A DNA stretch of 64,000 bases from an uncultured Candidatus Saccharibacteria bacterium. Its GTDB lineage: Bacteria; Patescibacteriota; Minisyncoccia; Minisyncoccales; UBA10102. Of the stretch, positions 1 to 51,482 are shown piece by piece. Every line of letters starts with the position of its first letter. Within the stretch, counting starts at the first letter, position 1. The notes under the pieces are model-generated. The model was not told where the DNA came from and searched no databases. It worked only from the letters and a program-made list of their open reading frames with translations. Location of the stretch: NCBI GenBank assembly GCA_964479725.1, contig CAYZNF010000004.1, positions 12,002 to 76,001 on the forward strand. Direction: 5' to 3'. Both the position numbers and the translations under genes were made by a program.

Positions 1-1
1 T

Positions 2-1627
2 CTTATTTTAGCCTTTATTGGCTTAGCAACAATTTTAAGATTGCAAGAATATGCCAATAAAAAGCTCATAGTCAACCTCGTTGTTATTATCCTTTTAATG
101 AATTTCAGCAATGTCCTTGTCGGGTTAGTGGTAGATTTTTCTAATATTATTACCCACTACTTCTTTTCGGCCATCGGAAATTTTGGCGCAGGAAATTTCA
201 ACCAAGTTTTTAGCATTGGAAGCGACTACTTAAGCACTATCGGGTCAAGCGATGAATTGAGCTTGTTGGAAGTTTTTGCTCAAGGAGTTTCGTATGGCTT
301 AGTATCTGCCGTATTCTTCTTGGTATCCGCTCTAGTGTTTTGGGTAGTATTTCTTGTACTACTTCTTCGTATTATTGTTTTATGGCTTCTTGTCATCCTT
401 GCCCCCTTTGCTTTCGCGGCATATATTCTCCCCGGCACAAAGAAGTACTGGAGCCAATGGTGGCAAACTCTTATCCAATGGTCTATTGTCGGCATTCCTA
501 TCGGATTTTTTATGTATATTGCCGGACAAGTAATGGATCTTAAAACTACAGAATTGTTTCCTTCTTCACCCAATATAGGAGGCGAAATTGGGAATATGTC
601 CCAACTATTTACAGCTCTTCTGGCTCCTGCTACGGGCATCTTTCTGCTTATGATAGGTGTGGGAATAAGTATGGCATTTGCCCCGTCAGGAAGCCAAAAA
701 CTAATTGCCTGGGGAAAAGATACGGGCAGAAAAGCCGCGGCCAGAGCGGGCCGACCCCTTGGCGACACAGCAAGAACATGGGCGGCATCACGTCCCGGAT
801 TTAAAAAATTCGCAGAAAAACTCGAGCAAACATCTTCCAGAGACGCCAAAGGAATCGGGAAGTTTGGCATTCGCCCCATTGCTCCTCTTGCAAGATGGGC
901 AGGCAGACAACTGGGTTCTGAAAACCAAGCTACACTAAAGGGGCAAGTCGGCACAGCCGAAACTGCCGCGGCAAAATTGAGCGCAGAAACAGTGGCTTCA
1001 AGATTAAGAGGCAATATATCTGTTCAGGAAAAAATCGGCTACATTAATGCAAAAATTAAAAGCGGAGACATTGACGATCTCATAAAGGCAATGGGTCCTA
1101 ACGGAGAACAAGAGATCCAAAAAATTTATTCGAAAGCAAAGCAAATTGGACAACATAAAGATATCGAGGCAGCTATGCCTCACGCTATCACCCCTACGGA
1201 ATTGCAAGACGCTGCCGTAGCAACAGAAAAAGAAAGACTCATGACGGCAAATCCAGCATGGCCCGAACAACAAGCTGCTACTCAAGCAAGAAATACGGTT
1301 GGCCCCACACATATAATGCAAGAACGCACTAAACGACTAGCGAGCATGAAACCCGATAAAATCAGACAAATGTCAGAAAGCGCATTAAATCATCCGGACA
1401 CTCTCAATGCCATACTGCGAGGATGGGATGGCGGCCAAGTTTCAGCTCTTTATGTCCAACACGGATTTAAAGCTGTTAAGGCTTTGGAGGATAGACTAAG
1501 GGCCTTAACGCCCGCAGGGCAAACGCCGTTAGCTTGGCTCGAAGACCCCAACGGAGGAAATAATGCTAAGCTAGGATATTATTTGGGCAATACAGCTGGC
1601 CGCAGATTGGGTTTCACCATACAGTAA
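2..1627 (+). CDS. Polytopic membrane protein, VirB6/TrbL-like candidate of the T4SS-like cluster (5' end runs off the window)
   Basis: The frame is open from base 2, with no stop upstream of the TTG at 41. The N-terminal ~230 aa are consecutive hydrophobic helices (e.g. LVSAVFFLVSALVFWVVFLVLLLRIIVLWLLVILAPFAFAAYIL), followed by a ~300-aa soluble tail. Neighbours are PrgI-like, VirB4-like and pilin-like genes. Confidence 0.45.
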   Translation, partial: LILAFIGLATILRLQEYANKKLIVNLVVIILLMNFSNVLVGLVVDFSNIITHYFFSAIGNFGAGNFNQVFSIGSDYLSTIGSSDELSLLEVFAQGVSYGLVSAVFFLVSALVFWVVFLVLLLRIIVLWLLVILAPFAFAAYILPGTKKYWSQWWQTLIQWSIVGIPIGFFMYIAGQVMDLKTTELFPSSPNIGGEIGNMSQLFTALLAPATGIFLLMIGVGISMAFAPSGSQKLIAWGKDTGRKAAARAGRPLGDTARTWAASRPGFKKFAEKLEQTSSRDAKGIGKFGIRPIAPLARWAGRQLGSENQATLKGQVGTAETAAAKLSAETVASRLRGNISVQEKIGYINAKIKSGDIDDLIKAMGPNGEQEIQKIYSKAKQIGQHKDIEAAMPHAITPTELQDAAVATEKERLMTANPAWPEQQAATQARNTVGPTHIMQERTKRLASMKPDKIRQMSESALNHPDTLNAILRGWDGGQVSALYVQHGFKAVKALEDRLRALTPAGQTPLAWLEDPNGGNNAKLGYYLGNTAGRRLGFTIQ

Positions 1628-1638
1628 GGTGCAATATG

Positions 1639-1667
1639 AAAGGCGAAGACATGGTGTCTTCGCCTTT
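1639..1667. terminator. Bidirectional hairpin between convergent genes
   Basis: aaaggcgaagaca-tgg-tgtcttcgccttt gives a perfect 13-bp stem with a 3-nt loop. The A-run and T-run are built into the stem ends. It sits between the stop at 1627 (+) and the stop at 1672 (-). Confidence 0.6.
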
Positions 1668-1671
1668 GTGT

Positions 1672-1902
1672 TCAACCTCGAAGAGCTTTCGATCTTGTGG
1701 CTTTGGCGCGCTCCTCGTCGCGCTGTTTTGCCATTGCCATCGCCTCCTTTTCGATTTCTCGACGATGGCGGCCCTCCGTTCCCCCTCGCAACGCATCTAG
1801 GAGACGGGCGAAGGGGTTTTTGCGGATAGGGGGTTTCTGTATTTTCCCACCCCCTCCCGTCGTGGGATACCGACTCCACTTGCTGTTATTGCTATTGGCC
1901 AT
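1672..1902 (-). CDS. Hypothetical small basic protein (76 aa), second gene of the high-GC SPFH cassette
   Basis: The ATG lies 10 nt after the SPFH stop and is preceded by gaggga (tgagggatcaATG). The protein is MANSNNSKWSRYPTTGGGGKIQKPP...EERAKATRSKALRG and ends just before the 1639-1667 hairpin. I recognise no family. Confidence 0.35.
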   Translation of the reverse strand: MANSNNSKWSRYPTTGGGGKIQKPPIRKNPFARLLDALRGGTEGRHRREIEKEAMAMAKQRDEERAKATRSKALRG

Positions 1903-1909
1903 TGATCCC

Positions 1910-2914
1910 TCACTTCTTCCACAGCGCAACGAGCCTGGTAAACACGTCCTCCATGCCCCCGCCGCCGCTCGTTGATATGGCGGTGTAGGCTCCCTTATCA
2001 AGGGCTCTCTCAAGCTTGAGCAACTCCAGAGCTGCCGCCACGACCTGCGCCTTAAGCTCTGGATTTCCGGCTATTCTCTGCTGCATCTCCTGCTCAGTCA
2101 AACCCTCCGCCCGCCCCATTATCCGTACCGCCATGCCTATCGTTCTCTCGAGCACAGCGTCGGTCTCAGCGACGGCCTGGCTTCGCGACTCCCTTGCCTC
2201 CTGGAATCTCTTTGATGTCTGGAAATCCTGGATAGTCACTCCCTTCAATCTGATTCCTACTTCTGACAGCTTCTTGTCAAGCTCGTCTAGTCGATCGTCT
2301 GGAATACCGTCGGGACCCTTGCGAGCAACGTTGTAGCCTCCTCGCACCCTAAGCGCAATGTTGATAGATGCAAGGGAGCTTAGATAGCTTCGCAGCGCAT
2401 TGCCCACAAGATCCTTTACCAGAGCCCTCCAATCATCATGACCGTAGATAACGCGGTAAGCTCCTGGCAAGAATTTCCCGTCGCCGGCATCGTAGGAAGT
2501 GTCTGGATTCATCACCTCGACTTGCGCTGCGGCTCCAATTACCGTAGCGGCGGCATCGTCAAAGTCAATTGAGTTGGGATGCTTATCGTCGTCTAGAAGC
2601 GGGATTGTCTGTTGGCTCACCGGTACCCGAGCCCGCACTTTTTCGACCCCCGGAATAAGCCATGCTTTTCCGGGTCTCAAAATCCTGCTGTACCTCCCGT
2701 ACCATTCAATCACGCCACGTTCATCCTCTGGAACCTGGACGAACCCGGCAAGTTGTTTGGTTTCAAGCAAGAACAAGCCCAGCCCCGACAACCCAGACAC
2801 GCCCCCCAGGAGCAAAGCTCCCCAGCCGAACTGGGCTTTATCCACCATGAAGAGGGTAAGCAAGCCCAGGGCCGCAAGCGCCCCACCGAGGGCAAACAGA
2901 ATTATTTTTGCCAT
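1910..2914 (-). CDS. SPFH/band-7 (prohibitin/HflK-like) membrane-anchored protein
   Basis: It has an N-terminal TM region (IILFALGGALAALGLLTLF...), then VPEDERGVIEWYGRYSRILRPGKAWLIPGVEKV, which is typical of an SPFH domain start, and a coiled-coil C-terminus. GC is 58% in 2041-2140 against a ~44% backbone. Confidence 0.65.
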   Translation of the reverse strand: MAKIILFALGGALAALGLLTLFMVDKAQFGWGALLLGGVSGLSGLGLFLLETKQLAGFVQVPEDERGVIEWYGRYSRILRPGKAWLIPGVEKVRARVPVSQQTIPLLDDDKHPNSIDFDDAAATVIGAAAQVEVMNPDTSYDAGDGKFLPGAYRVIYGHDDWRALVKDLVGNALRSYLSSLASINIALRVRGGYNVARKGPDGIPDDRLDELDKKLSEVGIRLKGVTIQDFQTSKRFQEARESRSQAVAETDAVLERTIGMAVRIMGRAEGLTEQEMQQRIAGNPELKAQVVAAALELLKLERALDKGAYTAISTSGGGGMEDVFTRLVALWKK

Positions 2915-2952
2915 AGCACTTTCTCCCCGTCGTTTGTTGACTATCTATATAT

Positions 2953-2981
2953 AACATAGCAATAAATTACGCTTATGTCAA
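2953..2981 (-). promoter_or_regulatory. Sigma70-type promoter of the SPFH cassette
   Basis: The minus strand reads TTGACA-taagcgtaatttattgc(17)-TATGTT, followed by GGGGAG 8 nt before the ATG at 2914. Confidence 0.5.
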
Positions 2982-3032
2982 ATTTAGACGCGCTTCTTCT
3001 ACTTCACCTAGAAATGTCCTATAATTTACTAT

Positions 3033-3506
3033 ATGGCAAATCAATACACACAAGAGGAATTGTGGAAATTATACAAAACTTTGCCCGAGCAATTGCAAGA
3101 AGCAATATTTTCAGAAGAAACCGCAAATCATATTGGTAGCGCTTGTACCAAAAACCAGGTACCAGGCAACCTTGTTCCACGAGTTGCCGCTCAAGTAGGG
3201 GATGTTTTACTGGGCTTGGTGCGCCCTGAAGATTTTCAAAAAAACCTCGAAAAAGAAATTGGCTTGAAAAAAGCGGCAACGCAAGGGATTACCCAAGAGC
3301 TGAACCGATTTATTTTTTATCCGTTAAGATCTACTATTGATTCACTGCATAAAATAGGAAACGCGGAAAATTCTGCCATAAAGGAACAGCCCATCAAAGT
3401 TACCTCAACTTCCGACGCCAATATCAACACGGAACAATCCCAGGAAACCATAAAAAAGATCAAGCATTCCGGCCCCGATCCTTATCGAGAGCCTACTGAA
3501 GAATAA
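3033..3506 (+). CDS. Hypothetical protein (157 aa)
   Basis: Clean ORF MANQYTQEELWKLYKTLPEQLQEAIFSEETANHI... in tight spacing with the downstream T4SS-like genes. TATAAT at 3020-3025 ends only 7 nt before the ATG. Confidence 0.55.
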   Translation: MANQYTQEELWKLYKTLPEQLQEAIFSEETANHIGSACTKNQVPGNLVPRVAAQVGDVLLGLVRPEDFQKNLEKEIGLKKAATQGITQELNRFIFYPLRSTIDSLHKIGNAENSAIKEQPIKVTSTSDANINTEQSQETIKKIKHSGPDPYREPTEE

Positions 3507-3512
3507 TACACA

Positions 3513-3938
3513 ATGCGATTTCAAGTTCCCCAATTCATTGATAGGGAAGCAAGAATCATCGGCCCCCTTACATTCAAGCAATTCGGCTTTATCGGGGGTT
3601 CTGGAGCTTTTGCGTTTGTCTTATATTTCCTCATCCCGTTCCGCCCCCTTTTCCTCGTGCTTGCCCTTATCCTAATTTCCTTTGGACTAAGTCTCGCTTT
3701 TGTACGGGTAAACGGCCGATCTTTTCCTGAATACGTCCTCAACATGCTCCGCTTTAGCACGGGAACCAAAATATACGTGTGGAAAAAAGAAGACGCAAAA
3801 TATTCGGCCGAAGCAAAACAACAGCCAGGCTCCGCAACCACGGAAACATCCGAAACCCTTTCTGCCGTTACCCTTACCAGCAAAAGCAAAATACGGAATT
3901 TGTCCAGTCAAGTAGAAACCCAAAATCCAAACGCGTAA
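3513..3938 (+). CDS. PrgI/VirB3-like small membrane protein
   Basis: MRFQVPQFIDREARIIGPLTFKQFGFIGGSGAFAFVLYFLIPFRPLFLVLALILISFGL matches the PrgI-family pattern as I recall it (VPqFid-e-kiiGpLT-kQf followed by two TM helices). It sits 3 nt upstream of the VirB4 N-terminal ORF. Confidence 0.6.
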   Translation: MRFQVPQFIDREARIIGPLTFKQFGFIGGSGAFAFVLYFLIPFRPLFLVLALILISFGLSLAFVRVNGRSFPEYVLNMLRFSTGTKIYVWKKEDAKYSAEAKQQPGSATTETSETLSAVTLTSKSKIRNLSSQVETQNPNA

Positions 3939-3941
3939 ACA

Positions 3942-4589
3942 ATGGCCGAAACCCCAACCCAACAATTTTTGCCGGTAAGCGAAATAAAACAGGGCGTGCT
4001 AATACTTCGAGATCGGGGGATCCGAGGAGTTTTGATGGTTTCTTCCCAAAACTTTGCTCTAAAATCGCAAGAAGAACAGGACGCCACAATTTACCAATTC
4101 CAAAACTTCTTGAATTCCTTGGATTTTCCCCTCCAAATTACCATGCAATCCCGACGCCTCAACATTACCGGATATTTAGACTACATTAAAAACCTCGAGG
4201 CACAGCAAACAAGCACTCTCCTGCAAAAACAAACCGAGGATTACCGAAAATTCATCAGCCAGCTTATCAGTTCGGGGTCTATTTTGGCAAAAAGCTTTTT
4301 TGTAGTAGTGCCGTTTAGCGGTTTGGAGGTTATTTCCACCGGATCAAAGCAAAGCCTGCTAAAGCGCGGAACACAGGGTTTAGGAAAAATTTCAGATGAG
4401 CAGTTTGAAAGAATGCGATCCCAACTTTGGCAAAGGATGGAGTATGTTGCCCTGGGTTTGAGAAGGGCAGGACTGCATGCCGTACCACTAAACACGGAGG
4501 AGTTAATAGAACTGCTTTGGAGCTGGCATCATCCCCAGGAAGCAGAGGTGGGATATTTCCCATCCATTCCGCCAGAACTTATTACATGA
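3942..4589 (+). CDS. VirB4-like T4SS ATPase, N-terminal segment (215 aa) of a split gene
   Basis: FLPVSEIKQGVLILRDRGIRGVLMVSSQNFALKSQEEQDATIYQFQNFLNSLDFPLQITMQSRRLNI is the characteristic N-domain of Gram-positive/CPR-type VirB4 proteins of ~800 aa. The stop TGA (4587-4589) lies inside the left inverted repeat. Confidence 0.7.
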   Translation: MAETPTQQFLPVSEIKQGVLILRDRGIRGVLMVSSQNFALKSQEEQDATIYQFQNFLNSLDFPLQITMQSRRLNITGYLDYIKNLEAQQTSTLLQKQTEDYRKFISQLISSGSILAKSFFVVVPFSGLEVISTGSKQSLLKRGTQGLGKISDEQFERMRSQLWQRMEYVALGLRRAGLHAVPLNTEELIELLWSWHHPQEAEVGYFPSIPPELIT

Positions 4590-4624
4590 TTCGAATCTAC
4601 GAATGTATTCGAATGCTACGAATA
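4585..4624. repeat. Left inverted repeat of the cassette
   Basis: catgattcgaatctacgaatgtattcgaatgctacgaata. Internally it is two ~18-nt direct subrepeats (attcgaat-c-tacgaat gt attcgaat-gc-tacgaat). Confidence 0.8.
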
Positions 4625-4638
4625 GACAATGCAAAAAC

Positions 4639-5025
4639 ATGAAAGAAACGGTGCTTTATCCAGAATTGTCCTACGCCTTGACCGGAATTTTATTCTTAAC
4701 ACATAACGAACTCGGAAAATACTGCAATGAACAGCAATACGGTGATAAAATTGAAAGTGAATTACACAAGGCCAACATAGTGTATGAAAGAGAGAAAATT
4801 CTGCCAATTTCTTTTGAGGGAGAACAAGCGGGACGAAACAAAGTTGATTTCCTTGTAGCCGACAGGATCATCTTGGAACTAAAAGCGAAACGAATCCTTA
4901 CAAGAGAAGATTATTATCAAGTAAAACGCTATTTAGCCGCACTTGATAAACAACTGGGAATACTAGTAAACTTCAGAGCAGAATACATTGTCCCAAAAAG
5001 AATTCTTCACCCGAGTCATATATGA
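4639..5025 (+). CDS. GxxExxY-family protein (PD-(D/E)XK nuclease-fold superfamily), 128 aa
   Basis: MKETVLYPELSYALTGILFLTHNELGKYCNEQQYGDKIESELHKANIVYEREKILPISFEGEQAGRNKVDFLVADRIILELKAKRILTREDYYQVKRYLAALDKQLGILVNF contains the GxxExxY motif (GKYCNEQQY) and the D...ELK core. I use the start at the ATG at 4639 rather than 4603, which lies inside the repeat. Confidence 0.65.
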   Translation: MKETVLYPELSYALTGILFLTHNELGKYCNEQQYGDKIESELHKANIVYEREKILPISFEGEQAGRNKVDFLVADRIILELKAKRILTREDYYQVKRYLAALDKQLGILVNFRAEYIVPKRILHPSHI

Positions 5026-5035
5026 TTATTTCTTT

Positions 5036-5081
5036 TATTTGTAGCATTCGAATTCATTCGTAGATTCGGATTATCCCCATG
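5036..5081. repeat. Right inverted repeat of the cassette, running into the ATG of the VirB4 C-terminal ORF
   Basis: tatttgtagcattcgaattcattcgtagattcggattatccccatg. It is nearly identical to the solo copy at 51432-51482. Confidence 0.8.
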
Positions 5082-6848
5082 AAACTGCCTTTCTTAAAAA
5101 AACAGCAAATCCCCGAACAGATTTTTTCGACAGCCAAAGTTACCGCGAACGACATTATCGCGCCTTCTTCGATTCGGGTAAATCCTGAATACCTTGAAAT
5201 CAGCGGGCGCATTGCAAAATCATTTTTCGTTTTCTCCTACCCAAGATACCTCACCGACGTTTGGCTCGCCCAGGCAATAAACCTCGACGTTCCTCTCGAC
5301 ATATCTTTATTTATCCATCCCATTGACACGGCCATGATAATGCGCCACTTAAGAAAACGCATTACCGAGGTCCAGGCGGAAATAATGGAAAGGGAAGACA
5401 AGGGACTAATCCGCGATCCCCAGCTTGAAATTGCCTTCCAGGACTTGGAGAGTTTGCGAGATCGCCTGCAAACAGCCCAGGAAAGAATGTTTAAGCTTGG
5501 AATTTACATCACCGCTTATGGCGAAACGCACGATCAGCTTCGCGAAATCGAAACAAACCTGCGCTCCATATTTGAGTCAAAACTTATTTACATAAAACCT
5601 GCCGTTTATCAGCAAAAAGAAGGTTTCAATTCCTGCCTGCCCTACGGCAAAGATTTGCTCAATGTCCACACCGATCTCAATACCGAACCCTTGTCTTCTG
5701 TTTTCCCGTTTGTGTCGTTTGACTTGAGCTCGAACGAAGGAATTTTGTACGGTATAAACCAGCACAACAACTCACTCATACTTTTTGACCGCTTTTCTTT
5801 GCCGAACGCAAACGAAGTGATCTTTGCCGCTTCTGGCGCTGGAAAAAGCTACTACGCTAAACTGCAAATCATCCGCTCGTTAATGACGGGGGTGGATGTG
5901 ATTGTGCTTGATCCTGAAAACGAATACAAAACTTTAAGCCAGGCGGTAGGAGGAAGCTTTTTTAATATTTCTTTGGGTTCTGAAAACCACATTAACCCGT
6001 TTGACCTGTCCCAGCCGCGCGAAGATGAATCCGCCGCCGATGTGCTTCGCAGCAACGTCATTAACCTGGTAGGGCTTATGCGTATTATGCTCGGCGGGCT
6101 AACCCCCGAAGAAGATGCCATTATGGACAGGGCAATTGCCGAAACATACGCGGCAAAAGACATAACTGCCAACTCTGATCCCGCCGCCTGGCCAGATAAA
6201 ATTCCTTTAATGCAGGATCTTGAAGAGGTTTTGCGCACCATGGATCGCGCAGATTCTTTGGTGGAACGCCTTCAGCGCTTTACAAAGGGAACATACTCTA
6301 ATTTCTTTAACCAGCCCACAAATATTTCGCTCGACAATAACCTACTTGTTTTTGGCATACGGGAAATGGAAGACAGCCTGCGGCCAATGGCAATGTACAC
6401 TATTATGCGATACATTTGGAGCAAGGTGCGCTCGGAACTCAAAAAGAGGGTGCTTGTGCTCGACGAAGCCTGGTGGATAATGCAAACGGAAGACGGAGCT
6501 TCGTTCCTTTTCGGGGTTGCCAAACGAGCGCGAAAATATTGGCTTGGAGTTACCACCATTACCCAGGATGTGGGGGATTTTATGCGCTCTGAATACGGAA
6601 AACCCATTATCACCAACTCCTCCATACAAGTGCTAATGAAACAATCGCCCGCGACGATTGACCTGGTCAAAAAATCCTTCAGTCTTACTGGTATGGAAAA
6701 AAATATGCTTCTGGAAACAAATACCGGCGAAGGAATATTTTTTGCCGGCCAAAAGCATGTGGCAATACGCGTCATCGCCTCGCCCTTAGAGCACAGCATA
6801 GTAACCACCAACCCGGAAGAAATACAAGGACTTAAGGAAGCGTTGTAA
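5079..6848 (+). CDS. VirB4-like T4SS ATPase, C-terminal segment (589 aa) of a split gene
   Basis: IAPSSIRVNPEYLEISGRIAKSFFVFSYPRYL (VirB4 middle-domain signature), Walker A AASGAGKSY and Walker B VLVLDEAW. It is in the same reading frame (coordinate mod 3 = 0) as 3942-4589. Confidence 0.8.
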   Translation: MKLPFLKKQQIPEQIFSTAKVTANDIIAPSSIRVNPEYLEISGRIAKSFFVFSYPRYLTDVWLAQAINLDVPLDISLFIHPIDTAMIMRHLRKRITEVQAEIMEREDKGLIRDPQLEIAFQDLESLRDRLQTAQERMFKLGIYITAYGETHDQLREIETNLRSIFESKLIYIKPAVYQQKEGFNSCLPYGKDLLNVHTDLNTEPLSSVFPFVSFDLSSNEGILYGINQHNNSLILFDRFSLPNANEVIFAASGAGKSYYAKLQIIRSLMTGVDVIVLDPENEYKTLSQAVGGSFFNISLGSENHINPFDLSQPREDESAADVLRSNVINLVGLMRIMLGGLTPEEDAIMDRAIAETYAAKDITANSDPAAWPDKIPLMQDLEEVLRTMDRADSLVERLQRFTKGTYSNFFNQPTNISLDNNLLVFGIREMEDSLRPMAMYTIMRYIWSKVRSELKKRVLVLDEAWWIMQTEDGASFLFGVAKRARKYWLGVTTITQDVGDFMRSEYGKPIITNSSIQVLMKQSPATIDLVKKSFSLTGMEKNMLLETNTGEGIFFAGQKHVAIRVIASPLEHSIVTTNPEEIQGLKEAL

Positions 6849-6852
6849 TGCC

Positions 6853-7338
6853 ATGGCAACAGAAACGGCCAATGCCCCGCCTGAATCCAAAACAAACCCG
6901 GAAACTCCAGGACAAAAAGAAAACCAGCCGCAAGGACAAGCTCAAGAAAATTCCGAAGCAACGGAAAGGGCAAGGGTAAGAATTACAGATCCGGATTTTT
7001 TAATCATGCTCATTATTGCCGGAACCGTCGACTTGATGGACATCTTTTTGGAACCGCTTGCTTTTCTGATTTTCCCTAAAATCCTCGGCCTTATTTTAGA
7101 TACCATCACGATCCCAATTATAAATCTCTGGATTTACTCGAGGACTAATCGCCTGGAACAAGCAAAAGCAAAAATGTCCCGCGGCTCCTCTTCTGACACA
7201 AGAAGAGGATACCAAGGAAAAGTATTAAGAAAGATACTCGGCAAAGCAGGCCTCACTTTTCTTTTAGAAGCCATCCCGATAGTAGGCATTTTCCCTTTTT
7301 TGACCTGCCGCGTGCTTTCGACCCTAAAAGAAAAATGA
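6853..7338 (+). CDS. Hypothetical membrane protein (161 aa) in the T4SS-like cluster
   Basis: It has a Q/E/N-rich N-terminus followed by hydrophobic helices (FLIMLIIAGTVDLMDIFLEPLAFLIFPKILGLILDTITIPIINLWIY; GLTFLLEAIPIVGIFPFLTC). It lies 4 nt after VirB4. Confidence 0.5.
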   Translation: MATETANAPPESKTNPETPGQKENQPQGQAQENSEATERARVRITDPDFLIMLIIAGTVDLMDIFLEPLAFLIFPKILGLILDTITIPIINLWIYSRTNRLEQAKAKMSRGSSSDTRRGYQGKVLRKILGKAGLTFLLEAIPIVGIFPFLTCRVLSTLKEK

Positions 7339-7352
7339 TATAATTTTACAAC

Positions 7353-8681
7353 ATGCTCCGTATCTCCGCAAAACATATTTTCTTTTTCGCGCTCTTCGCT
7401 GTCGTGGCTTTTTTTATAGTCTCTTCCCCCGCTGTTTTTGCGCAAGAAAATCAACAATCTATTACCTGCGAAGAGGGTAAAAAGGCCTGCGGCGGAAATT
7501 GTATTTCAAGCGATTCGCTTTGTCTCAATCTTCAGTATCCATCTTTTGGAGGATATGATCTCAATACCGACCAAGAGCTCACCAAGTTCATTGCCTGGCT
7601 ATACTATTTCATGATTGGCATTGGCGGATTACTTGCATTTTTGATGCTCACCTGGGGAGGAGTTCAATACCTGTCTTCTGCGGGAAATCCGGGGCAAATT
7701 GGCGACGCAAAAGACAAAATCCAAAAAGCAATTTTCGGCCTTTTGCTTTTGCTTTCCTCCGTTCTCATAATCCAATTGTTCAATCCCGATCTAACTACAA
7801 TCCAAGACCCCGGGGCAAAGAAACTCAAGCTTGGAACGTTTGAGCTAACAAAATCCACCGTAGACATTCCCTACCGATGCAGTCCAATAAGCGGAGCTAA
7901 TCACACCTACCAATGCGCGGGAGGGATTCCTTTGGCTCCAGGACAACCTCCTGTAGATTTTGACTCTTCTGATGTCATTCCTGCTACTTCCTCAGACCCA
8001 GCACATATTTGGCCTGAAGCATGTGTTATAACCTCTGCTCCGGGCGAATACAGCAAATCGTGTGTTGCTGAGTGTTTCCGAGCCGGAGGAGAATCTGGCA
8101 AATTTGGAGAGACGTGGACTTGTTGCAACGTTCCTTCGCCAGAAAATCCGGGGCCCTCAACAACATGCCGCGGTATAACCAAAGGAGAGAACGAAGTTTT
8201 GGTTAGTCTGACTCCTAGTAGCCAAAACATACAACCCCTCATGCAATCTGTTATGCAAAGAGTAAAAGGAGTTTATGCATGCGATGACGTGGGTTGCAGA
8301 ATAGCTTGGAGAAAGTTTACGAAAAGCACTCCAAGGATTTGCAGATCAATTGTTGAGGATTCTTCTCCGTCAAACGATGACTTGTGCACGCAAATAGGTT
8401 CTCTTTATATCAATCAAAATGCAGTTGTCGTGCTTTACGAGGAAGAGAACTATAATGAAAATTATCCGATTTCAGAAAACAAAAAAAGAGTATGCTTTGA
8501 CAACACAAGCGGGAACAATAAACTCATTGCTAATCTAGACGCTATTCAAATTGCCCCTTCCTTTGTCAAAAACAATGGATGGAATGAAGACGCAGATAGT
8601 ATAAAAATACTAGACCCAGGAGATCCGGAAATCGAAAAAGTTTGTCAAAACAAATTTGAAGAGACTCTTCCTTCTCTCTAG
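7353..8681 (+). CDS. T4SS-pilin-like (VirB2/TrbC-type) domain fused to a ~290-aa cysteine-rich C-terminal domain
   Basis: Signal peptide (FFFALFAVVAFFIVSSPAVFAQ), then FIAWLYYFMIGIGGLLAFLMLTWGGVQYLSSAGNPGQIGDAKDKIQKAIFGLLLLLSSVLIIQLFNPDL. This is the two-helix pilin pattern I associate with the CPR T4SS pilin family. By my count the C-terminal part holds 14 Cys. Confidence 0.55.
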   Translation: MLRISAKHIFFFALFAVVAFFIVSSPAVFAQENQQSITCEEGKKACGGNCISSDSLCLNLQYPSFGGYDLNTDQELTKFIAWLYYFMIGIGGLLAFLMLTWGGVQYLSSAGNPGQIGDAKDKIQKAIFGLLLLLSSVLIIQLFNPDLTTIQDPGAKKLKLGTFELTKSTVDIPYRCSPISGANHTYQCAGGIPLAPGQPPVDFDSSDVIPATSSDPAHIWPEACVITSAPGEYSKSCVAECFRAGGESGKFGETWTCCNVPSPENPGPSTTCRGITKGENEVLVSLTPSSQNIQPLMQSVMQRVKGVYACDDVGCRIAWRKFTKSTPRICRSIVEDSSPSNDDLCTQIGSLYINQNAVVVLYEEENYNENYPISENKKRVCFDNTSGNNKLIANLDAIQIAPSFVKNNGWNEDADSIKILDPGDPEIEKVCQNKFEETLPSL

Positions 8682-8690
8682 AAAAAGGGA

Positions 8691-8718
8691 AGAGGCGCCG
8701 CCCAAAAGCGGTGCCTCT
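8691..8718. terminator. Hairpin between convergent genes
   Basis: agaggcgccgc-ccaaaa-gcggtgcctct, with one G:T pair in the stem. On the minus strand it is followed by cccttttt. Confidence 0.5.
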
Positions 8719-8727
8719 TGCTTGTTG

Positions 8728-9447
8728 CTACTTCAAGCTTGCAAACTTCAGCCCCCCAGCACCAGAGGGCACGAGAACGGGCCGAAACTTGCCGAAAAGC
8801 TCGCGATGCGCGAGATCCGGGACGCCCAGAGCGTGTACGTCTCCCTTCATCACCACGCATCCGTAACAGCCCTTCACGCCGTGATAGACCTGCTCCTCGG
8901 GAATCTCCACTCCCGAGAAACGAGGCTGTTGGCTTAGCCACCGGGCCACAATCAGCAACTCTTCAGGATTGCCCCCAATACTAGGCCCACCGACTAACAT
9001 CATGGCCTGGTCTACGTACCCCCAATTGGCCAACAGCACAAAAGAGGCTACGATTTGACCGCCGTCCTCCATACTATCGACAGGATCACCGGGAAGCTGA
9101 TACACCCCAGGTGTAATACCCCATTTTTCCCGCGCCACCGTATCGGCATACGGCCCCGTATAGACCGTGGCCTTGCCCTTCACAGAGGTGGAGGGGAGGA
9201 CTTGCTCCTGGAGCACGACAGCGCTGTCGCTCGCGGGAACCTTCTGCTCCTGGACGACGATGTCGCCTGGCGCAGCGACCGCCGCGTTGTTGTCGGTCGG
9301 CGCAAGAGCGACCGTCTCCCTTGAGAAAAAGCCTGTCGCAACCGACAAGAACAACCCCACGGCTAGCAGGAACAGTACCACGGCCCCGGTTGGGAAAACC
9401 CAGCCGGGTAGTCTGGCCGGTCTACGAACTTGGGTAGTGGTAGTCAT
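8728..9447 (-). CDS. Hypothetical membrane-anchored protein (239 aa), high-GC cassette
   Basis: I chose the start at MTTTTQVRRPARLPGW because AAGGAGGG sits 6 nt upstream (gcAAGGAGGgttaaaATG). It has one TM helix (VVLFLLAVGLFLSVATGFF). GC is 55% in 9001-9100. I recognise no family. Confidence 0.55.
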   Translation of the reverse strand: MTTTTQVRRPARLPGWVFPTGAVVLFLLAVGLFLSVATGFFSRETVALAPTDNNAAVAAPGDIVVQEQKVPASDSAVVLQEQVLPSTSVKGKATVYTGPYADTVAREKWGITPGVYQLPGDPVDSMEDGGQIVASFVLLANWGYVDQAMMLVGGPSIGGNPEELLIVARWLSQQPRFSGVEIPEEQVYHGVKGCYGCVVMKGDVHALGVPDLAHRELFGKFRPVLVPSGAGGLKFASLK

Positions 9448-9515
9448 TTTAACCCTCCTTGCATTGTCTGTTCTTACCGACAACCGAATTAGGAAAAGAG
9501 CAACTCTCTACTTTC

Positions 9516-9693: not shown

Positions 9694-10149
9694 CTATTTT
9701 GGCTTTACAATAATTCTTCGATTTGGCTCCTCGCCAAGGCTTTCTGAAACAACATCATTACGGTCGGCTAGTTCCATATGCACGATCCTCCTCTCCGAAG
9801 GAGGCATAGCTTCCAATTCCCTGGGCTTTTTAAGCAGGGAAACCTCGTCTGCCACTGTTCTGGCAAGCTCGCGCAGGTAGTTTTCCTTGTTTTTCCTGTA
9901 GCCGTTAATATCCATGGTAAGGCGTATAGATTCGCCTGTTTTCTTTTTCATTATGAGCCGCAAAAGGTACTGGATATCAGAAAGCACCGACCCTCTGTCG
10001 CCTATAAACAATTGGGGGTCTTTGGCAACAAGATCAATAGAGTATACTTCGTCTTCAAGCAGGCTTACTTTTACCTCGCCTTCCAGTTCGAGCTTTGAGA
10101 AAAGGGTTTTTGCCTCTTTTTCAATTGTCGAAAGAAAGTTATTGAGCAT
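9694..10149 (-). CDS. jag: Jag/KhpB-type RNA-binding protein (KH + R3H)
   Basis: C-terminal R3H-like MPPSERRIVHMELADRNDVVSESLGEEPNRRIIVKP. It holds the conserved position downstream of yidC. Confidence 0.8.
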   Translation of the reverse strand: MLNNFLSTIEKEAKTLFSKLELEGEVKVSLLEDEVYSIDLVAKDPQLFIGDRGSVLSDIQYLLRLIMKKKTGESIRLTMDINGYRKNKENYLRELARTVADEVSLLKKPRELEAMPPSERRIVHMELADRNDVVSESLGEEPNRRIIVKPK

Positions 10150-10879
10150 TTGCGTTTGCCAAAGCTTTCTCTTTTTTATCGTTCCTGTTCATCCACCAGT
10201 ATTGGGCAATGCTGAATAAATTGCTCACCACCAAATACAAAGCAACTGCCGAGGGCATGCGCATGCCGATAATCACTATGATTACGGGGAAGATAAACAG
10301 CATCTGCTTTTGCATTATGGAGGAAAAATCACCTGTCTGTGTTTTGGCTGTTTGTTTTTTTTGAGGTATTGTCTGTTTTACCTGTATAAATTGGGTAAGC
10401 CCGGCAAGCACGGCAAGCGGAAGAGAGGTTTTTGCCAGATCAACCAAATTTAAAAGCGTGGTGTTGATAACCTCGGGACGCGAGATAAAGCTGTACAATA
10501 AATTCAGCTTGTCTCCGTTAAATCCCTTCCAAAACAATTGGTATAATGCAATCATCACGGGAAGCTGGAGAAGAAGGGGGAGAAAGGAAGCAAAAGGATT
10601 TACCTTCTCTTTTTTATACAGCTCCATTGTCGCCTCGGCGAGCTTCGTCCGGTCTTTTTTGAATTTCGCCCGAATTTCCTCGATCCTTGGCTGGAGCTCT
10701 GCCAACCGTTTTTGGGCTTTCGTGGCTTTGGCGCTCAAGGGATACAGCACGAAACGTATCACTAGCGTCAGCGCAACGACAGCAAGCCCAAAATCACCCA
10801 AGTACTCATAGAGCAAAACAAGGGCGTTAAAAAGGGGGATAAAAAGAACTGTCCGAAAAAAATCTACAATAAGGCTCAT
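10139..10879 (-). CDS. yidC: Membrane protein insertase YidC/Oxa1 family
   Basis: Multi-TM 246-aa protein: LFNALVLLYEYLGDFGLAVVALTLVIRFVLYPLSAKATKAQKRLAELQPRIEEIRAKFKKD. It lies in rnpA-yidC-jag synteny. Confidence 0.85.
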   Translation of the reverse strand: MSLIVDFFRTVLFIPLFNALVLLYEYLGDFGLAVVALTLVIRFVLYPLSAKATKAQKRLAELQPRIEEIRAKFKKDRTKLAEATMELYKKEKVNPFASFLPLLLQLPVMIALYQLFWKGFNGDKLNLLYSFISRPEVINTTLLNLVDLAKTSLPLAVLAGLTQFIQVKQTIPQKKQTAKTQTGDFSSIMQKQMLFIFPVIIVIIGMRMPSAVALYLVVSNLFSIAQYWWMNRNDKKEKALANANAQ

Positions 10880-11241
10880 ACGTTTAATCTAGATGTGGTA
10901 GGTTGCAGTAGCGAAGCTTTTTTGAATGCTTTCCAGGCGATCCTGGCGGCTTCTTCTTCTGTTTTGATTGAAAGCCCGGGCAGAGCAATTATCACTATGT
11001 CCCAGCCGTTGTTAATTTCAGAAATGCGCTTTCGGATTGCTTCGCTTAAAAACCGGCGGATTTGATTTCGCTCCACCGCTTTTTTTGAGACTTTTTTACT
11101 TACAACGACCGCGAACCGGGAAAAGGGAAACTGATTTTCTTTTCTGCGCACAACAATTCCCTCGCTCCGCACGCTGTTGCGACCGCGGAAAACCCGTTCA
11201 AACTCTTTTGTTTTTGTAAGCCGTAAGGCTTTGGGGAGCAT
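10876..11241 (-). CDS. rnpA: Ribonuclease P protein component
   Basis: LRLTKTKEFERVFRGRNSVRSEGIVVRRKEN...FAVVVSKKVSKKAVERNQIRRFLSEAIR. It lies immediately downstream of rpmH. Confidence 0.85.
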   Translation of the reverse strand: MLPKALRLTKTKEFERVFRGRNSVRSEGIVVRRKENQFPFSRFAVVVSKKVSKKAVERNQIRRFLSEAIRKRISEINNGWDIVIIALPGLSIKTEEEAARIAWKAFKKASLLQPTTSRLNV

Positions 11242-11259
11242 TCGAAAGATCGCGCATTA

Positions 11260-11394
11260 TTAAACAGTCAGGCGTTTTCGTCCTTTTTGCCTGCGCTTTG
11301 AAACAATAGTCCGTCCTGTACGGGTTTTGGTCCGCTTTAAGAAACCGTGGGTTCTTTTCCGTTTCTTTTTCCTGGGTTGATATGTTATGCTCAT
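11260..11394 (-). CDS. rpmH: 50S ribosomal protein L34 (44 aa; not in the supplied ORF track)
   Basis: Manual translation of the minus strand gives [44 protein letters not shown] followed by a stop. Confidence 0.9.
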
Positions 11395-11449
11395 AGGCAA
11401 AGTATACTATTTTGCCGTTACCTGGTCAAACGTTCCCTTTCTCACCAGC

Positions 11450-11471
11450 CTATCCCCAGCTTTTCCCCAGC
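11450..11471. promoter_or_regulatory. Two tandem copies of the motif (C/T)T(A/T)TCCCCAGC upstream of dnaA (DnaA-box-like)
   Basis: ctatccccagc (11450-11460) and ttttccccagc (11461-11471). The same motif recurs at 12991-13002 and 13046-13057. Confidence 0.45.
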
Positions 11472-11572
11472 TTCTGCACAGCCTTGGAGCTTTCTTGTTT
11501 ATTTGGCGCGAGATTGCGTTGTGCTATAATGATCCATCATCGTTCTTCAATACAACAGCTAGTCGCAGACTA

Positions 11573-12943
11573 ATGACAAAAGAAGAACTTTGGCAAGCCG
11601 TGCTTGCCCAACTCCAATTTCATATTTCTCCGGCCAATTTTGCCACATGGCTGAAGAATACTTTTATCCTTTCTAAAAAAGGTGGCCAGCTTCTTGTGTC
11701 CGTGCCGAATAATTTTTCGAAAGAGTGGCTCGAAAACAAATATAACAAGCTGATATTTAAGATTTTAAAGGAAACAGACCACGAAATAAAAGAGATTTTA
11801 TATACGGTAGAAAAAGTTCCCCAGAAACCAAAAGAAGCCCCAACTCCCAGCCCAATTTCCCATTCTGCCGCAATGGTCGCGGAGGCGCAGCTTGAATTCC
11901 AGGAATTCAAGGTAAACAAAACCACAAACCTCAACCCAAAATATACTTTTGAGAATTTTATCGTGGGCCCTTTCAATGAATTGGCTAACGCCGCTTCTTT
12001 GGCCATTACCCAGCACCCGGGAACAGTGTACAACCCCCTTTTCGTATACGGGGGAGTGGGGCTGGGCAAAACCCATCTCTTGCAGGCAACAGGCAACAAG
12101 ATAGCAAAGGATTTCCCGGAAAAGAAAGTGCGCTATATTTCTTCGGAACGCTTTACGTCGGGAGTTGTCTCGGCCATCCGCAACCGTACGGTTGATGAAT
12201 TTCGCGTTTCCTACCGCGACATTGATATTTTTATCTTAGACGACGTGCAATTTCTTGCCGGCAAAGACAAAACCCAGGAAGAGCTCTTCCATACGTTTAA
12301 TACCCTGTACGAGCACGGCAAGCAGGTTGTTTTTTCGTCCGACCGGCCGCCAAAATCTATTCCGGCCCTGGAAGAGCGTTTGCGTTCCCGCTTCGAGGGG
12401 GGCATGGTCGCGGACGTCAGCATGCCAGACTACGAAACAAGACTGGCCATTTTGAAATCGAAAATGCAAGAAAAAAACTTTATGCTGGGCGAAGATATAT
12501 GTGAATACATAGCATCGCACATCCAGAGAAACATTAGGGAGCTGGAAGGCGCTCTTAACCGGCTGTATGCGCACTTCAGGCTCATAAACAAGGCGCCAAC
12601 CCTTGTGGATGCTAAATCCGCGCTCAAAACAGTCATACAAAGCCCCAACAAAATGATAAACCATAAGAAAATCATCCAGATTGTGGCTGAATTTTATGAT
12701 ATCAAAGAAAAAGACATTATCGCGCCCTCCCGCAAAAAGGAGGTTGTAAAACCAAGACAGATTGCCATGTACCTGCTCCGCGAAGAATTAAAAAGTTCCT
12801 TTCCCTTTATTGGCAAAAGATTTGGGGGCAAAGATCACACCACAGCAATTTATGCCTGTGAAAAAATTGGGAAAGAAATGCAGGAATCCGAAATTTTGTT
12901 TGATGAAATCAATCTAATAAAACAGAGGATGTACAGTGGATAA
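11573..12943 (+). CDS. dnaA: Chromosomal replication initiator DnaA (456 aa)
   Basis: MTKEELWQAVLAQLQFHISPANFATWLKNT, Walker A GGVGLGKTHLLQA, and C-terminal KPRQIAMYLLREELKSSFPFIGKRFGGKDHTTAIYA. I prefer the start at 11573 because the track start at 11387 would overlap rpmH. TGcTATAAT lies at 11522-11530. Confidence 0.9.
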   Translation: MTKEELWQAVLAQLQFHISPANFATWLKNTFILSKKGGQLLVSVPNNFSKEWLENKYNKLIFKILKETDHEIKEILYTVEKVPQKPKEAPTPSPISHSAAMVAEAQLEFQEFKVNKTTNLNPKYTFENFIVGPFNELANAASLAITQHPGTVYNPLFVYGGVGLGKTHLLQATGNKIAKDFPEKKVRYISSERFTSGVVSAIRNRTVDEFRVSYRDIDIFILDDVQFLAGKDKTQEELFHTFNTLYEHGKQVVFSSDRPPKSIPALEERLRSRFEGGMVADVSMPDYETRLAILKSKMQEKNFMLGEDICEYIASHIQRNIRELEGALNRLYAHFRLINKAPTLVDAKSALKTVIQSPNKMINHKKIIQIVAEFYDIKEKDIIAPSRKKEVVKPRQIAMYLLREELKSSFPFIGKRFGGKDHTTAIYACEKIGKEMQESEILFDEINLIKQRMYSG

Positions 12944-13106
12944 CTTCCGCTGATTTTTATAAGCTAAGTTCTGCTCTTTTTCAGGAGCGATTTATCCCCA
13001 GCTCCATACACAGAATATTAAAGAGGGGTTAAGAAGAGGGTGCGAGTTTTCCCCAGCTATAGTAATAACAGTAATCAATACATATTAATTAATAATTATA
13101 GAGGAG
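12936..13106. other. Candidate oriC (dnaA-dnaN intergenic region)
   Basis: Canonical box gtggataac (reverse complement TTATCCAC) at 12936-12944. Variant boxes tttatccccagc (12991-13002) and gttttccccagc (13046-13057). An AT-rich tract agtaataacagtaatcaatacatattaattaataattata at 13061-13100 could be the DUE. Confidence 0.55.
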
Positions 13107-14231
13107 ATGAAAGCCACCGTACTGAAAGAAAATTTAAAAGAGGGATTGCTTACGGTAGAAAAAGCTATTTCAAAATCGTTGAGCCTGCCCATACTGGGGA
13201 ACGTGCTGCTTTCATGCGAGAAAAATTTTGTTGAATTGGCGGCCACCGACCTGGAGATTGGCATTAGGTACAGGATGCTCTCGAAAAACGAACAGGAGGG
13301 CAGTGTAGTCATTCCAGGAAGGGTTTTGTCGCAGCTTGTGGGTTTTCTGCCGGAGTCCTCTGTTATGCTCGAACAGCGCGACGGTGAATTGCTTGTAGTG
13401 TGCGGGGATTATTCTACCACTGTAAAAATATTAAGCGCCGAAGAATTTCCACTTATTCCTTCGCTTAAGGGAGAGGAACGATGCATGGAGGTTGAAGCGC
13501 AATCGTTCTGCAGGGGATTAAACCAAGTAGCTGGAATGGCTGGACAAAGCCAGGCGCGTCCCGAGATTGGAGGGGTGTATTTGGTTTTTGAGAAAGATTC
13601 AGCTAAAGTTGTGGCAACCGACAGTTTCCGCCTGGGGGAAAAGACGCTGTATTTTAAAGAACCCTCTTCGCTGGAAACCTCTTTTATACTGCCCCAAAAA
13701 ACAGCGCGGGAGATTATTTCTATTTTTAGCGAGAAAGAGGGGAAGGTAAAAGCTTGCCTTTCCGCGAGCCAGGTTATTTTTGACTACTCTTCAGAAGATC
13801 TTTCCCAGCCCCATGTGCAGGTAGTATCCCGACTGATTGATGGGGAATACCCGAGATACCAGGATATTATTCCCAAAGACTATAAAACAAAGGTTATTGC
13901 GGACAGAGCAGAGCTTATGAACCATGTGCGGGCATCGAGTATTTTCACGGGGAAAACAAACGAAGCCCATTTTTGTTTCCAGCCGGAAGAAGGGGGCATG
14001 GAAATCACTTCCAGGAATACCGATGTTGGGGAGCACACTTCTTTTTTAAAGGGGGATGTTGCGGGAGAGCATCTGCAGGTATCTTTTAACTGGAGGTTTT
14101 TACTTGAAGGGCTGGGCGCCATGAAAAGTAAGGATGTGGAAATGCGCTTGAGCGGGGAAGACGGTCCTGCCGTGTTGGCGCCGCAAGAACAGGAGGGTTT
14201 TTTGTATATTTTAATGCCAATAAAAGCATAG
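13107..14231 (+). CDS. dnaN: DNA polymerase III beta sliding clamp
   Basis: 374 aa directly after dnaA: MKATVLKENLKEGLLTVEKAISKSLSLPILGNVLL...; ends YILMPIKA. Confidence 0.9.
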   Translation: MKATVLKENLKEGLLTVEKAISKSLSLPILGNVLLSCEKNFVELAATDLEIGIRYRMLSKNEQEGSVVIPGRVLSQLVGFLPESSVMLEQRDGELLVVCGDYSTTVKILSAEEFPLIPSLKGEERCMEVEAQSFCRGLNQVAGMAGQSQARPEIGGVYLVFEKDSAKVVATDSFRLGEKTLYFKEPSSLETSFILPQKTAREIISIFSEKEGKVKACLSASQVIFDYSSEDLSQPHVQVVSRLIDGEYPRYQDIIPKDYKTKVIADRAELMNHVRASSIFTGKTNEAHFCFQPEEGGMEITSRNTDVGEHTSFLKGDVAGEHLQVSFNWRFLLEGLGAMKSKDVEMRLSGEDGPAVLAPQEQEGFLYILMPIKA

Positions 14232-17665: not shown

Positions 17666-17673
17666 GAGTTTCC

Positions 17674-20130: not shown

Positions 20131-20137
20131 TTTAAAT

Positions 20138-51431: not shown

Positions 51432-51482
51432 TATTTGTAGCATTCGCATTTATTCGTAGATTCGGATTATCTTTATGAAACT
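51432..51482. repeat. Solo copy of the VirB4-cassette terminal repeat, including the ATGAAACT start
   Basis: tatttgtagcattcgcatttattcgtagattcggattatctttatgaaact differs from 5036-5086 at 5 of 51 positions. It fills the 46-nt gap before the EndoQ-like gene. Confidence 0.8.

Follow-up and report, generated by a model that had tools for sequence, protein, structure and literature searches.

A relaxase-less type IV secretion locus beside the replication origin in a genome assigned to Candidatus Wildermuthbacteria, with a hairpin-flanked nuclease gene between two of its genes

The stretch of DNA analyzed here (64 kb of contig CAYZNF010000004.1 of assembly GCA_964479725.1, hereafter the window) carries the genes of a type IV secretion system (T4SS); this system is of a published kind, and the unusual detail of the locus is a hairpin-flanked nuclease gene lying between two of its genes. 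On the basis of its sequence, the genome was assigned to Candidatus Wildermuthbacteria, in the class Paceibacteria of the Patescibacteria. A protein with 100% identity to the VirB4 encoded in the window is found in a metagenome-assembled genome (MAG) of Candidatus Wildermuthbacteria, and the sequence that the window shares with the public contig L006 (GCA_016188315.1), which reaches 5 kb further upstream, is 99.98 to 100% identical. The core of the locus is a plus-strand operon (3033 to 8681), which encodes, in this order, a 157-aa protein, a PrgI/VirB3-like protein, a TraC/TrsD-like protein, VirB4, a 161-aa protein with three transmembrane (TM) segments, and a VirB2-like pilin with a variable Cys-rich domain (Table 1). 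The operon is tightly packed, with gaps of 6, 3, 4, and 14 nt and with the exception of 489 nt between 4589 and 5079. The original prediction had given a spacing of 3 to 15 nt throughout the gene set, which holds for these four gaps but neither for the two VirB4 parts nor for the VirB6-like gene located upstream, which is separated from the next plus-strand gene by 1405 nt containing a minus-strand SPFH gene. The reading frames of all nine genes of the locus, as well as the ATPase motifs, are intact in the translations.

The TraC-like protein and VirB4 correspond to successive parts of the same profile. In fact, VirB4 covers positions 180 to 733 of conju_CD1110, colinear after the TraC-like protein, which matches positions 5 to 107 of that profile and positions 104 to 216 of VirB4_plasma (both NCBIfam); the identical TraC-like protein in L006 carries a precomputed match to PF26593 (TraC-like). 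The Walker A (GAGKSY) and Walker B (VLDEAW) motifs of VirB4 are intact in the translation, and its closest solved relative is structure 4AG5 (E value of 3.6e-45). For comparison, we considered five related loci (L001, L002/L003, L004/L005, L024, and L025), whose VirB4 proteins are 72 to 77% identical to that of the window. In each of them, a separate TraC-like gene of 210 to 223 aa (PF26593) precedes a VirB4 gene of 590 to 621 aa, and the TraC-like protein of the window is 63 to 66% identical to the products of the separate genes of 212 to 220 aa in L001, L002, and L004. Furthermore, more than 8000 homologues of VirB4 were found, and the best 120 (70 to 100% identity), belonging to Wildermuthbacteria, Parcubacteria, and Candidate Phyla Radiation (CPR) or unnamed metagenome bins, are 555 to 634 aa long, all but one being of 585 to 634 aa. 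Because the N-terminal domain is a separate gene in every relative and the best 120 homologues are all of 555 to 634 aa, we consider the two-gene layout to be ancestral in this clade and not the result of a disruption of virB4, so that the earlier description of a split VirB4 does not stand. Moreover, no T4SS component has been described as more abundant in Patescibacteria than the TrsD-like protein (PMC12102498).

The PrgI/VirB3-like protein, a two-TM hairpin, is 36 to 41% identical to its counterparts in the related loci, and its assignment, like those of VirB4 and of the T4SS pilin, was borne out by profile matches above the curated cutoffs. Of the VirB6-like gene, only the 3' part lies in the window; the complete gene encodes 655 aa and starts 340 nt before the window (L006 4709 to 6676), and the length of 528 aa previously attributed to its product is incorrect, as the open reading frame (ORF) leaves the window at its start. 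In the in-window part (41 to 1627), the TrbL/VirB6 match reaches 28.6 bits (cutoff, 25.9). The protein presents about eight predicted TM helices followed by a hydrophilic C-terminal domain of about 320 aa, an arrangement known as extended VirB6, and is 27 to 37% identical to its positional orthologues of 803 to 1107 aa in the related loci.

The pilin consists of a signal peptide, two TM helices (residues 73 to 143), and a variable domain that makes up the C-terminal 290 aa or so, with 18 Cys residues in the whole protein. The part conserved with the pilins of the relatives (125 to 449 aa) is the pilin domain only (residues 51 to 154), and the 290 C-terminal residues are not conserved even with the relatives' pilins of 449 and 371 aa; a single-sequence model of the fusion was too poor for use (predicted local distance difference test [pLDDT] score of 45.8). 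C-terminal extensions of the pilin occur in the window (7353 to 8681, Cys rich), in L024 (12279 to 13628), and in L004 (2752 to 3867), and the pilin domain is found at the C terminus of a larger protein in L001 (1783 to 4416) and L002 (2409 to 4769). A weaker pilin-like gene precedes the VirB6-like gene upstream of the window (151 aa, L006 4185 to 4640; 24.5 bits against the T4SS_pilin cutoff of 26.6), with ksgA and a LysM-Peptidase_M23 gene further out; in the relatives, the upstream pilin domain forms the C terminus of proteins of 786 to 877 aa, which in L001 contain PKD domains. The repeated fusion of the pilin module to variable surface domains suggests, at the level of sequence, that these proteins could be pilus-anchored variable adhesins.

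Two further components are conserved in the locus. The 157-aa protein, cytoplasmic and encoded by the first gene of the core operon, comprises a helical domain (residues 1 to 110) joined by a disordered linker to a C-terminal tail with the motif D-x-Y-R-E. The alignment of the family shows D and Y of this motif to be invariant and R nearly so; among the loci examined, this tail motif is restricted to the family of the 157-aa protein. Its 26 homologues all come from CPR or unnamed bacteria, and its identity to the positional orthologues in the relatives is 34 to 48%. In the alignment-based AlphaFold model, the pLDDT exceeds 85 for residues 11 to 100; a Foldseek comparison with the PDB gave no match below an E value of 0.78, and a profile search against PDB sequences was empty. 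It is possible to hypothesize that this protein could be a CPR-specific adaptor which takes over the role of the coupling protein. The 161-aa protein shows, in the alignment and the TM scan, an acidic variable N terminus, Asp residues that are conserved within the membrane segments, and a conserved end of the sequence T-L-R-E-K. An exhaustive HMMER search retrieved 74 cluster representatives at an E value of 1e-3 or lower, a word-indexed search having returned the query alone; the 74 representatives have no Pfam family in common, and no match was found in the PDB. The positional equivalents in L001 and L004 are 27% identical to it.

The comparison of gene order across related genomes, which had been proposed as a check, showed both the order and the position of the genes to be kept in the five loci. 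In each, a VirB6-like gene (803 to 1107 aa) is followed by variable small minus-strand genes, a gene for a protein of 143 to 165 aa, PrgI, the TraC-like gene, and VirB4; past VirB4, most relatives encode a membrane protein of 136 to 152 aa, a pilin, or both. Pairwise identities confirm the orthology of every component across the loci. The 3' housekeeping flank of the relatives is jag-yidC-rnpA(-rpmH), divergent from dnaA-dnaN-PBP1-tyrS-ruvC. In the window, the T4SS genes have a guanine-plus-cytosine (GC) content of 44 to 45%, with a window mean of 45.8%. It follows that the locus is vertically inherited and chromosomal, and not an island, because its order and flanks are kept in the relatives and its GC content is native.

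The block of jag, yidC, rnpA, and rpmH next to dnaA and dnaN, which had been recognized in the window before, was confirmed by Pfam matches; the statement that the T4SS genes directly abut it needs correction, as a minus-strand ORF of 251 aa lies between the pilin gene and jag. The stop codon of the pilin gene is 2.7 kb away from the start of dnaA, and the cumulative GC skew has its minimum at 12 to 13 kb. Near-consensus DnaA boxes are not enriched (18 found, 12.5 expected), so that gene order and GC skew are the basis on which the origin was called. Judging from strand and skew, the T4SS operon would be transcribed toward the origin, head-on to replication, in the window genome and in all five relatives; the adjoining jag-yidC-rnpA-rpmH genes are codirectional with replication. 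A perfect TATAAT hexamer (3020 to 3025) was noticed within a spacer of 34% GC, only 7 nt before the core operon's first ATG, and a consensus scan called no full promoter there; a hexamer so near to the ATG may point to a leaderless transcript or one with a very short leader.

The 489 nt between the TraC-like gene and virB4 are accounted for by an inserted hairpin element, of 36.6% GC, whose inverted-repeat arms are 90% complementary and, as RNA, pair in a stem some 40 bp long (z = -4.5). The ORF enclosed by the arms is listed at 4603 to 5025, with the likely start at the ATG at 4639, in the loop, and its product matches Pfam PDDEXK_3 (85.2 bits) and NCBIfam GxxExxY (79 bits), of the PD-(D/E)XK type. 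The left arm supplies the TGA stop codon of the TraC-like gene, and the ATG of virB4 lies 4 nt past the right arm. In the five relatives, the distance between the stop of the TraC-like gene and the start of virB4 is -4 to +5 nt (ATGA, TAATG, or short spacers). The pentamer CATGA is present on both sides of the window element, which could represent a target site duplication; none is evident in L008, which carries a related element. Neither a DDE nor a serine transposase was found with the element, and an intron or intein context is absent. The hypothesis of a self-splicing intron at the VirB4 junction was rejected, as Rfam shows neither an intron nor a ribozyme there.

The junction is filled only in the window genome and in the metagenome contig L010, and the site is empty in the five relatives. 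The element-encoded protein of L010 is 82% identical to that of the window, and the flanking TraC-like and VirB4 proteins are 66 and 70% identical, respectively; since the element is thus more alike than its flanks and the sites are empty in five relatives, the pattern fits a homing-like spread. As far as the sequences go, a nuclease-family ORF, a filled site in a divergent host, empty sites elsewhere, and less conserved flanks would make up a profile like that of a homing endonuclease. A solo right arm of the element is present elsewhere in the window, where the search for such arms gave two matches against 0.00 expected by chance.

For the ORF, the close homologues encoded in two MAGs of Saccharibacteria and in another 13 metagenome contigs likewise lie between inverted repeats. 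In 17/17 loci, no more than 9 of 200 shuffles attained the score of the best flanking repeat, and in nine of these loci none did; the ORF is co-oriented with both neighbors in all 10 loci where both flanks are readable; examples of the junctions occupied are that between pilM and pilN and a site just before the gene of a VirD4-like ATPase. The members of this family (in the window, L008, L009, and L010 to L023) measure about 0.5 kb, have inverted repeats of 30 to 50 nt composed of degenerate units of 8 to 10 nt, are placed in sense orientation between codirectional genes, and often provide the upstream stop codon and finish 4 nt before the downstream ATG. In L002 (8466 to 8927; also in L003), an ORF of the 23S_rRNA_IVP family enclosed in a 46-nt inverted repeat lies between the gene of a 144-aa protein and PrgI of the T4SS operon, and its sequence leads us to regard it as a second kind of insert resembling an intervening sequence (IVS) in this operon.

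The window element has the anatomy of the ORF-bearing 23S rRNA IVSs, whose long stem is cleaved by RNase III: one small ORF occupies the loop of a stem (of about 40 bp in the element) and reads in the same direction as the surrounding transcription unit. Different from the IVSs, which are found in rRNA, the element lies between protein-coding genes and encodes a GxxExxY protein of the PD-(D/E)XK type. With homing endonucleases and elements of the kind of miniature inverted-repeat transposable elements, it shares the nuclease-fold ORF, the terminal inverted repeats, and a solo arm elsewhere in the genome, but it lacks an intron or intein context, a DDE transposase, and a clear target site duplication. 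Our searches of the literature gave no description of elements with GxxExxY, PDDEXK_3, or IVS proteins residing in the protein operons of CPR bacteria. The GxxExxY inserts may constitute an undescribed class of IVS-like selfish elements of Patescibacteria, which would home into junctions between codirectional operon genes, leave both neighbors expressible through the stop codon provided to one and the 4 nt left before the start codon of the other, and probably be freed from the polycistronic transcript when their stem is cleaved.

Table 1. Features of the T4SS locus and its surroundings, in coordinates of the window
Feature	Coordinates	Strand	Evidence or remark
VirB6-like polytopic membrane protein, in-window C-terminal 542 codons	1-1627	+	Pfam TrbL; TM scan; synteny
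SPFH/Band-7 membrane protein, 334 aa	1910-2914	-	Pfam Band_7, 57.4 bits; GC 55.7%
Conserved cytoplasmic 157-aa protein, first core-operon gene	3033-3506	+	No known family
PrgI/VirB3-like protein, two-TM hairpin	3513-3938	+	Pfam PrgI, 37.6 bits (cutoff, 27)
TraC-like/TrsD-like protein, 215 aa (VirB4 N-terminal domain as own gene)	3942-4589	+	NCBIfam; PF26593
Inserted hairpin element	4586-5074	+	39-nt inverted-repeat arms (4586-4624 and 5036-5074) around GxxExxY ORF
VirB4 ATPase, MPF_FATA/CD1110 type, 589 aa	5079-6848	+	NCBIfam conju_CD1110, 377 bits (cutoff, 325)
Conserved 161-aa three-TM protein	6853-7338	+	No known family
VirB2-like T4SS pilin, 442 aa	7353-8681	+	Pfam T4SS_pilin (PF18895), residues 73-143, 41.2 bits (cutoff, 26.6)
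Terminator-like hairpin at operon end	8690-8719	+	12-bp stem, 8 G-C pairs, 9 nt past pilin stop codon
251-aa ORF, one TM, between pilin gene and jag	8728-9483	-	GC 58.7%; no family
Origin block: jag/khpB, yidC, rnpA, rpmH (-), then dnaA, dnaN (+)	9694-14231	both	Pfam matches
rpmH ORF	11260-11400	-	ORF in origin block
Three-gene block: 126-aa acidic protein, 818-aa VirD4/TrwB-like ATPase, 789-aa highly charged protein	17285-22507	+	Between PBP1 and tyrS
Solo right arm of the element	51434-51470	+	35/37 nt identical; 4 nt upstream of ATG of gene 51475-52722

The two minus-strand genes that bracket the core operon, for the SPFH protein and the 251-aa ORF product, are GC rich with respect to the window mean, and both are missing at these places in most relatives. 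The spot between VirB6 and the core operon is variable, the relatives carrying other small minus-strand genes there, and the SPFH protein is probably not a part of the T4SS; as a conserved partner of the system it was rejected, the SPFH gene found at the same site in L025 being nonorthologous. For the 251-aa ORF, searches of Pfam, NCBIfam, PHROG, PADLOC, and PDB gave no match. It is absent from the corresponding position in the relatives, where the pilin, the small membrane protein, or VirB4 directly adjoins jag, and is probably a lineage-specific acquisition. We also noticed that the public MAG contigs L006 and L007 lack 127 nt (1943 to 2069) and 45 nt (57250 to 57294) of the window; without the 127 nt, the C terminus of the SPFH protein is frameshifted, which makes an erroneous deletion in the public assembly probable at this place.

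Beyond dnaN, the window encodes a Peptidase_C39_2 protein, PBP1, the three-gene block of Table 1, and tyrS. The VirD4/TraD-like ATPase predicted at 17674 to 20130 was confirmed as such by its TrwB_AAD_bind match (37.8 bits; cutoff, 20.5), with TraG-D_C at 22.1 bits and conju_CD1115 at 44.5 bits, far under the cutoff of 250. In its full length, however, it matches phrog_5156, a phage family of unknown function (E value of 1.3e-86), and it is about 20% identical to proteins of Bacillus and Geobacillus phages annotated as helicase or translocase; no close relative of the gene was found in viral contigs. Besides one N-terminal TM segment, the protein has a domain of unknown function that spans about 400 aa, and it matches PADLOC mad8 with 58 bits. 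PBP1 directly adjoins tyrS in all five relatives, so that the block is an insertion relative to them, and the ATPase gene lies 9 kb from the T4SS operon, across the origin. Thus, the role of this ATPase as a partner of the T4SS of the window, as implied by the original prediction, is unproven, because the gene is not syntenic in the relatives and its best full-length match is a phage family. The 789-aa protein of the same block (20138 to 22507) is extremely charged and rich in K, E, and R, its coding stretch being strongly purine rich, with a GC skew up to 0.39 and an adenine-thymine skew up to 0.32; it has no match to any family or in PHROG, PADLOC, or PDB.

The remaining housekeeping genes of the window include those for a PilB/GspE-type ATPase, DNA polymerase I, a two-component system, UvrB, RuvA, a Mur ligase, and tmRNA, among others, and the Rfam scan of the window detected one tmRNA and one tRNA only, and no rRNA. 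The PilB/GspE-type ATPase (26640 to 28825, minus strand; T2SSE, 383 bits) is of the sort found with type IV pili and not a VirB11, and its neighbor is a 293-aa protein without a family; a T2SSE gene is also found 3' of ruvB in L025.

T4SSs have been reported in 2,417 of 3,035 Patescibacteria genomes, their VirB4 proteins forming one monophyletic group within MPF_FATA (Quinonero-Coronel et al. 2025, PMC12102498). In that data set, in which Wildermuthbacteria are included, TrsD, PrgI/VirB3, VirB6, and VirB2-like pilins, and almost no relaxases, are associated with VirB4, and the T4SSs of Paceibacteria and Microgenomatia are found near dnaA, dnaN, rnpA, rpmH, and ksgA (PMC12102498). The locus of the window, with its near-MPF_FATA VirB4, separate TrsD/TraC-like gene, PrgI/VirB3, putative VirB6, VirB2-like pilins, position adjacent to dnaA, and lack of a relaxase, is fundamentally the same and differs in local peculiarities only, namely, the GxxExxY element, a Cys-rich pilin fusion of about 290 aa instead of a pilin array, the GC-rich insertions on the opposite strand, and a VirD4-like gene nearby. 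A VirD4-like gene within 20 coding sequences, as in the window, is rare in the T4SSs of Patescibacteria (148/5,713; PMC12102498). The locus is therefore a chromosomal relaxase-less T4SS of the kind already published for Patescibacteria and is not new. With the conjugative T4SSs of monoderms (MPF_FATA; Prg/Pcf of pCF10 and CD1110-CD1115 of CTn2), it shares a VirB4 that scores above the cutoff of the CD1110 family, PrgI, a VirB6-like protein, and the lack of an outer membrane core; different from them, the operon contains neither a relaxase nor an adjacent type IV coupling protein (T4CP), nor a recognizable PrgL (VirB8-like), PrgK (VirB1-like), or PrgB-type adhesin, its VirB4 is encoded as two genes, and VirB2-like pilins, which are lacking in the monoderm systems, are present.

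The view that these genes form a minimal chromosomal T4SS of the Patescibacteria type, and not an integrative and conjugative element, is supported by the VirB4 homologues, the synteny of five loci, the native GC content, and the lack of a relaxase and an integrase. Taking the evidence together, we are confident that the locus is best explained as a vertically inherited, oriC-adjacent chromosomal T4SS derived from MPF_FATA, which would serve contact-dependent exchange with the host and whose VirB4 genes would have been pushed apart by a selfish element. On the basis of the architecture of T4SSs and of the work on Saccharibacteria, VirB6, VirB3, the TraC-like protein, and VirB4 would form a translocon in the cytoplasmic membrane; the translocon would assemble a VirB2-type pilus or conduit bearing the variable surface domains; and the machine would import host macromolecules or export effectors in contact with the host cell, rather than conjugate. 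The GxxExxY element would have moved the TraC-like gene and virB4 489 nt apart while preserving both frames, one by the stop codon it supplies and the other by the start codon retained. As regards function, the T4SS and pilin genes are essential, and comEC is dispensable, in Southlakia epibionticum (PMC10633639, PMC12857230), in which the essential T4SS corresponds to SEML1_0006-0019 (Wang et al. 2023, PMC10633639), and tubular structures, possibly T4SS pili, have been seen at the parasite-host interface (bioRxiv 10.64898/2026.06.21.733656). Reviews describe the function of the T4SS as completely unknown and consider effector delivery or nucleic acid uptake (PMC12857230, PMC11665869).

Some observations weigh against this explanation. 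Saccharibacteria, which form another class, are the source of all the functional evidence. The full-length VirB6-like protein of 655 aa scores only 23.7 bits on TrbL, under the cutoff passed by its in-window part, and the VirB6 call therefore also rests on the eight predicted TM helices, the hydrophilic C-terminal half, and synteny; moreover, it has no support from the PDB, where a four-sequence profile matched only low-complexity regions. VirB8-like and VirB1-like proteins were not recognized within the window. Finally, the element removes the stop/start overlap and buries the region before the VirB4 start in a stem, and expression of VirB4 could therefore be impaired.

It is possible, though in our opinion rather doubtful, that the system is specifically a machine for the import of DNA or RNA, similar to ComB or Ced, which would feed nucleotides to an organism unable to make them. 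The absence of a relaxase agrees with this, the T4SS has been proposed as a candidate route of nucleotide acquisition (PMC11665869), and a 2026 preprint ties T4SS-like pili to the use of host RNA (bioRxiv 10.64898/2026.06.21.733656); VirB4 also shows weak matches to the archaeal DNA importers CedB and CedD (36 and 25 bits), but these are far under the cutoffs and concern the P-loop region only. The operon has no recognizable nuclease or nucleic acid-binding partner, Wang et al. favor protein export or another role (PMC10633639), and the sequence does not tell import from export. Similarly tentative is the joint proposal that the inserts are an undescribed class of IVS-like selfish elements and, at the same time, that the 157-aa protein is a CPR-specific adaptor of the coupling type.

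A T4SS undergoing inactivation in this organism, with the element and the surrounding foreign genes as early signs of decay, appears improbable. The insertion abolishes the stop/start overlap present in all the relatives without the element, it sets the start region of VirB4 beside a long stem, and three lineage-specific insertions occur within 9 kb; nevertheless, all nine genes are intact in frame and in their catalytic motifs, the same junction is filled in the divergent L010, where the flanking genes are also intact, and the related elements are always sense oriented between intact genes, which suggests tolerance. As for an integrative and conjugative element or mobile island near the origin, dedicated to conjugative DNA transfer with the VirD4-like ATPase as its coupling protein, we judge it very unlikely: the VirB4 family is named after conjugative elements, a VirD4/TrwB-like gene lies 9 kb away in an insertion of three genes, and GC-rich, foreign-looking genes flank the core operon, but no relaxase or integrase was found in any ORF scanned in the 64-kb window and the 5 kb upstream of it, nor were oriT, attachment site boundaries, a tRNA target, or flanking direct repeats, the T4SS genes have native GC, order and housekeeping flanks are common to five relatives with VirB4 only 72 to 77% identical, the VirD4-like protein has its best match in a phage family, and S. 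epibionticum can dispense with its T4CP homologue, but its T4SS genes are essential (PMC12102498).

Returning to a vertically inherited chromosomal T4SS, the locus adds one instance to a system cataloged in about 2,400 Patescibacteria genomes, whose function is one of the main open questions on how ultrasmall epibionts live on their hosts. It shows the strictly conserved nine-gene layout in Wildermuthbacteria and defines two conserved components without detectable relatives, the 157-aa protein with the tail motif and the 161-aa protein with three TM segments, and the pilin domain fused to hypervariable surface domains fits a role in host recognition. Furthermore, small hairpin-flanked genes for nucleases or IVS proteins can reside in operons whose counterparts are essential in a related lineage, and such elements could matter for gene calling, where they give rise to apparently split genes, and for the understanding of selfish DNA in reduced genomes.

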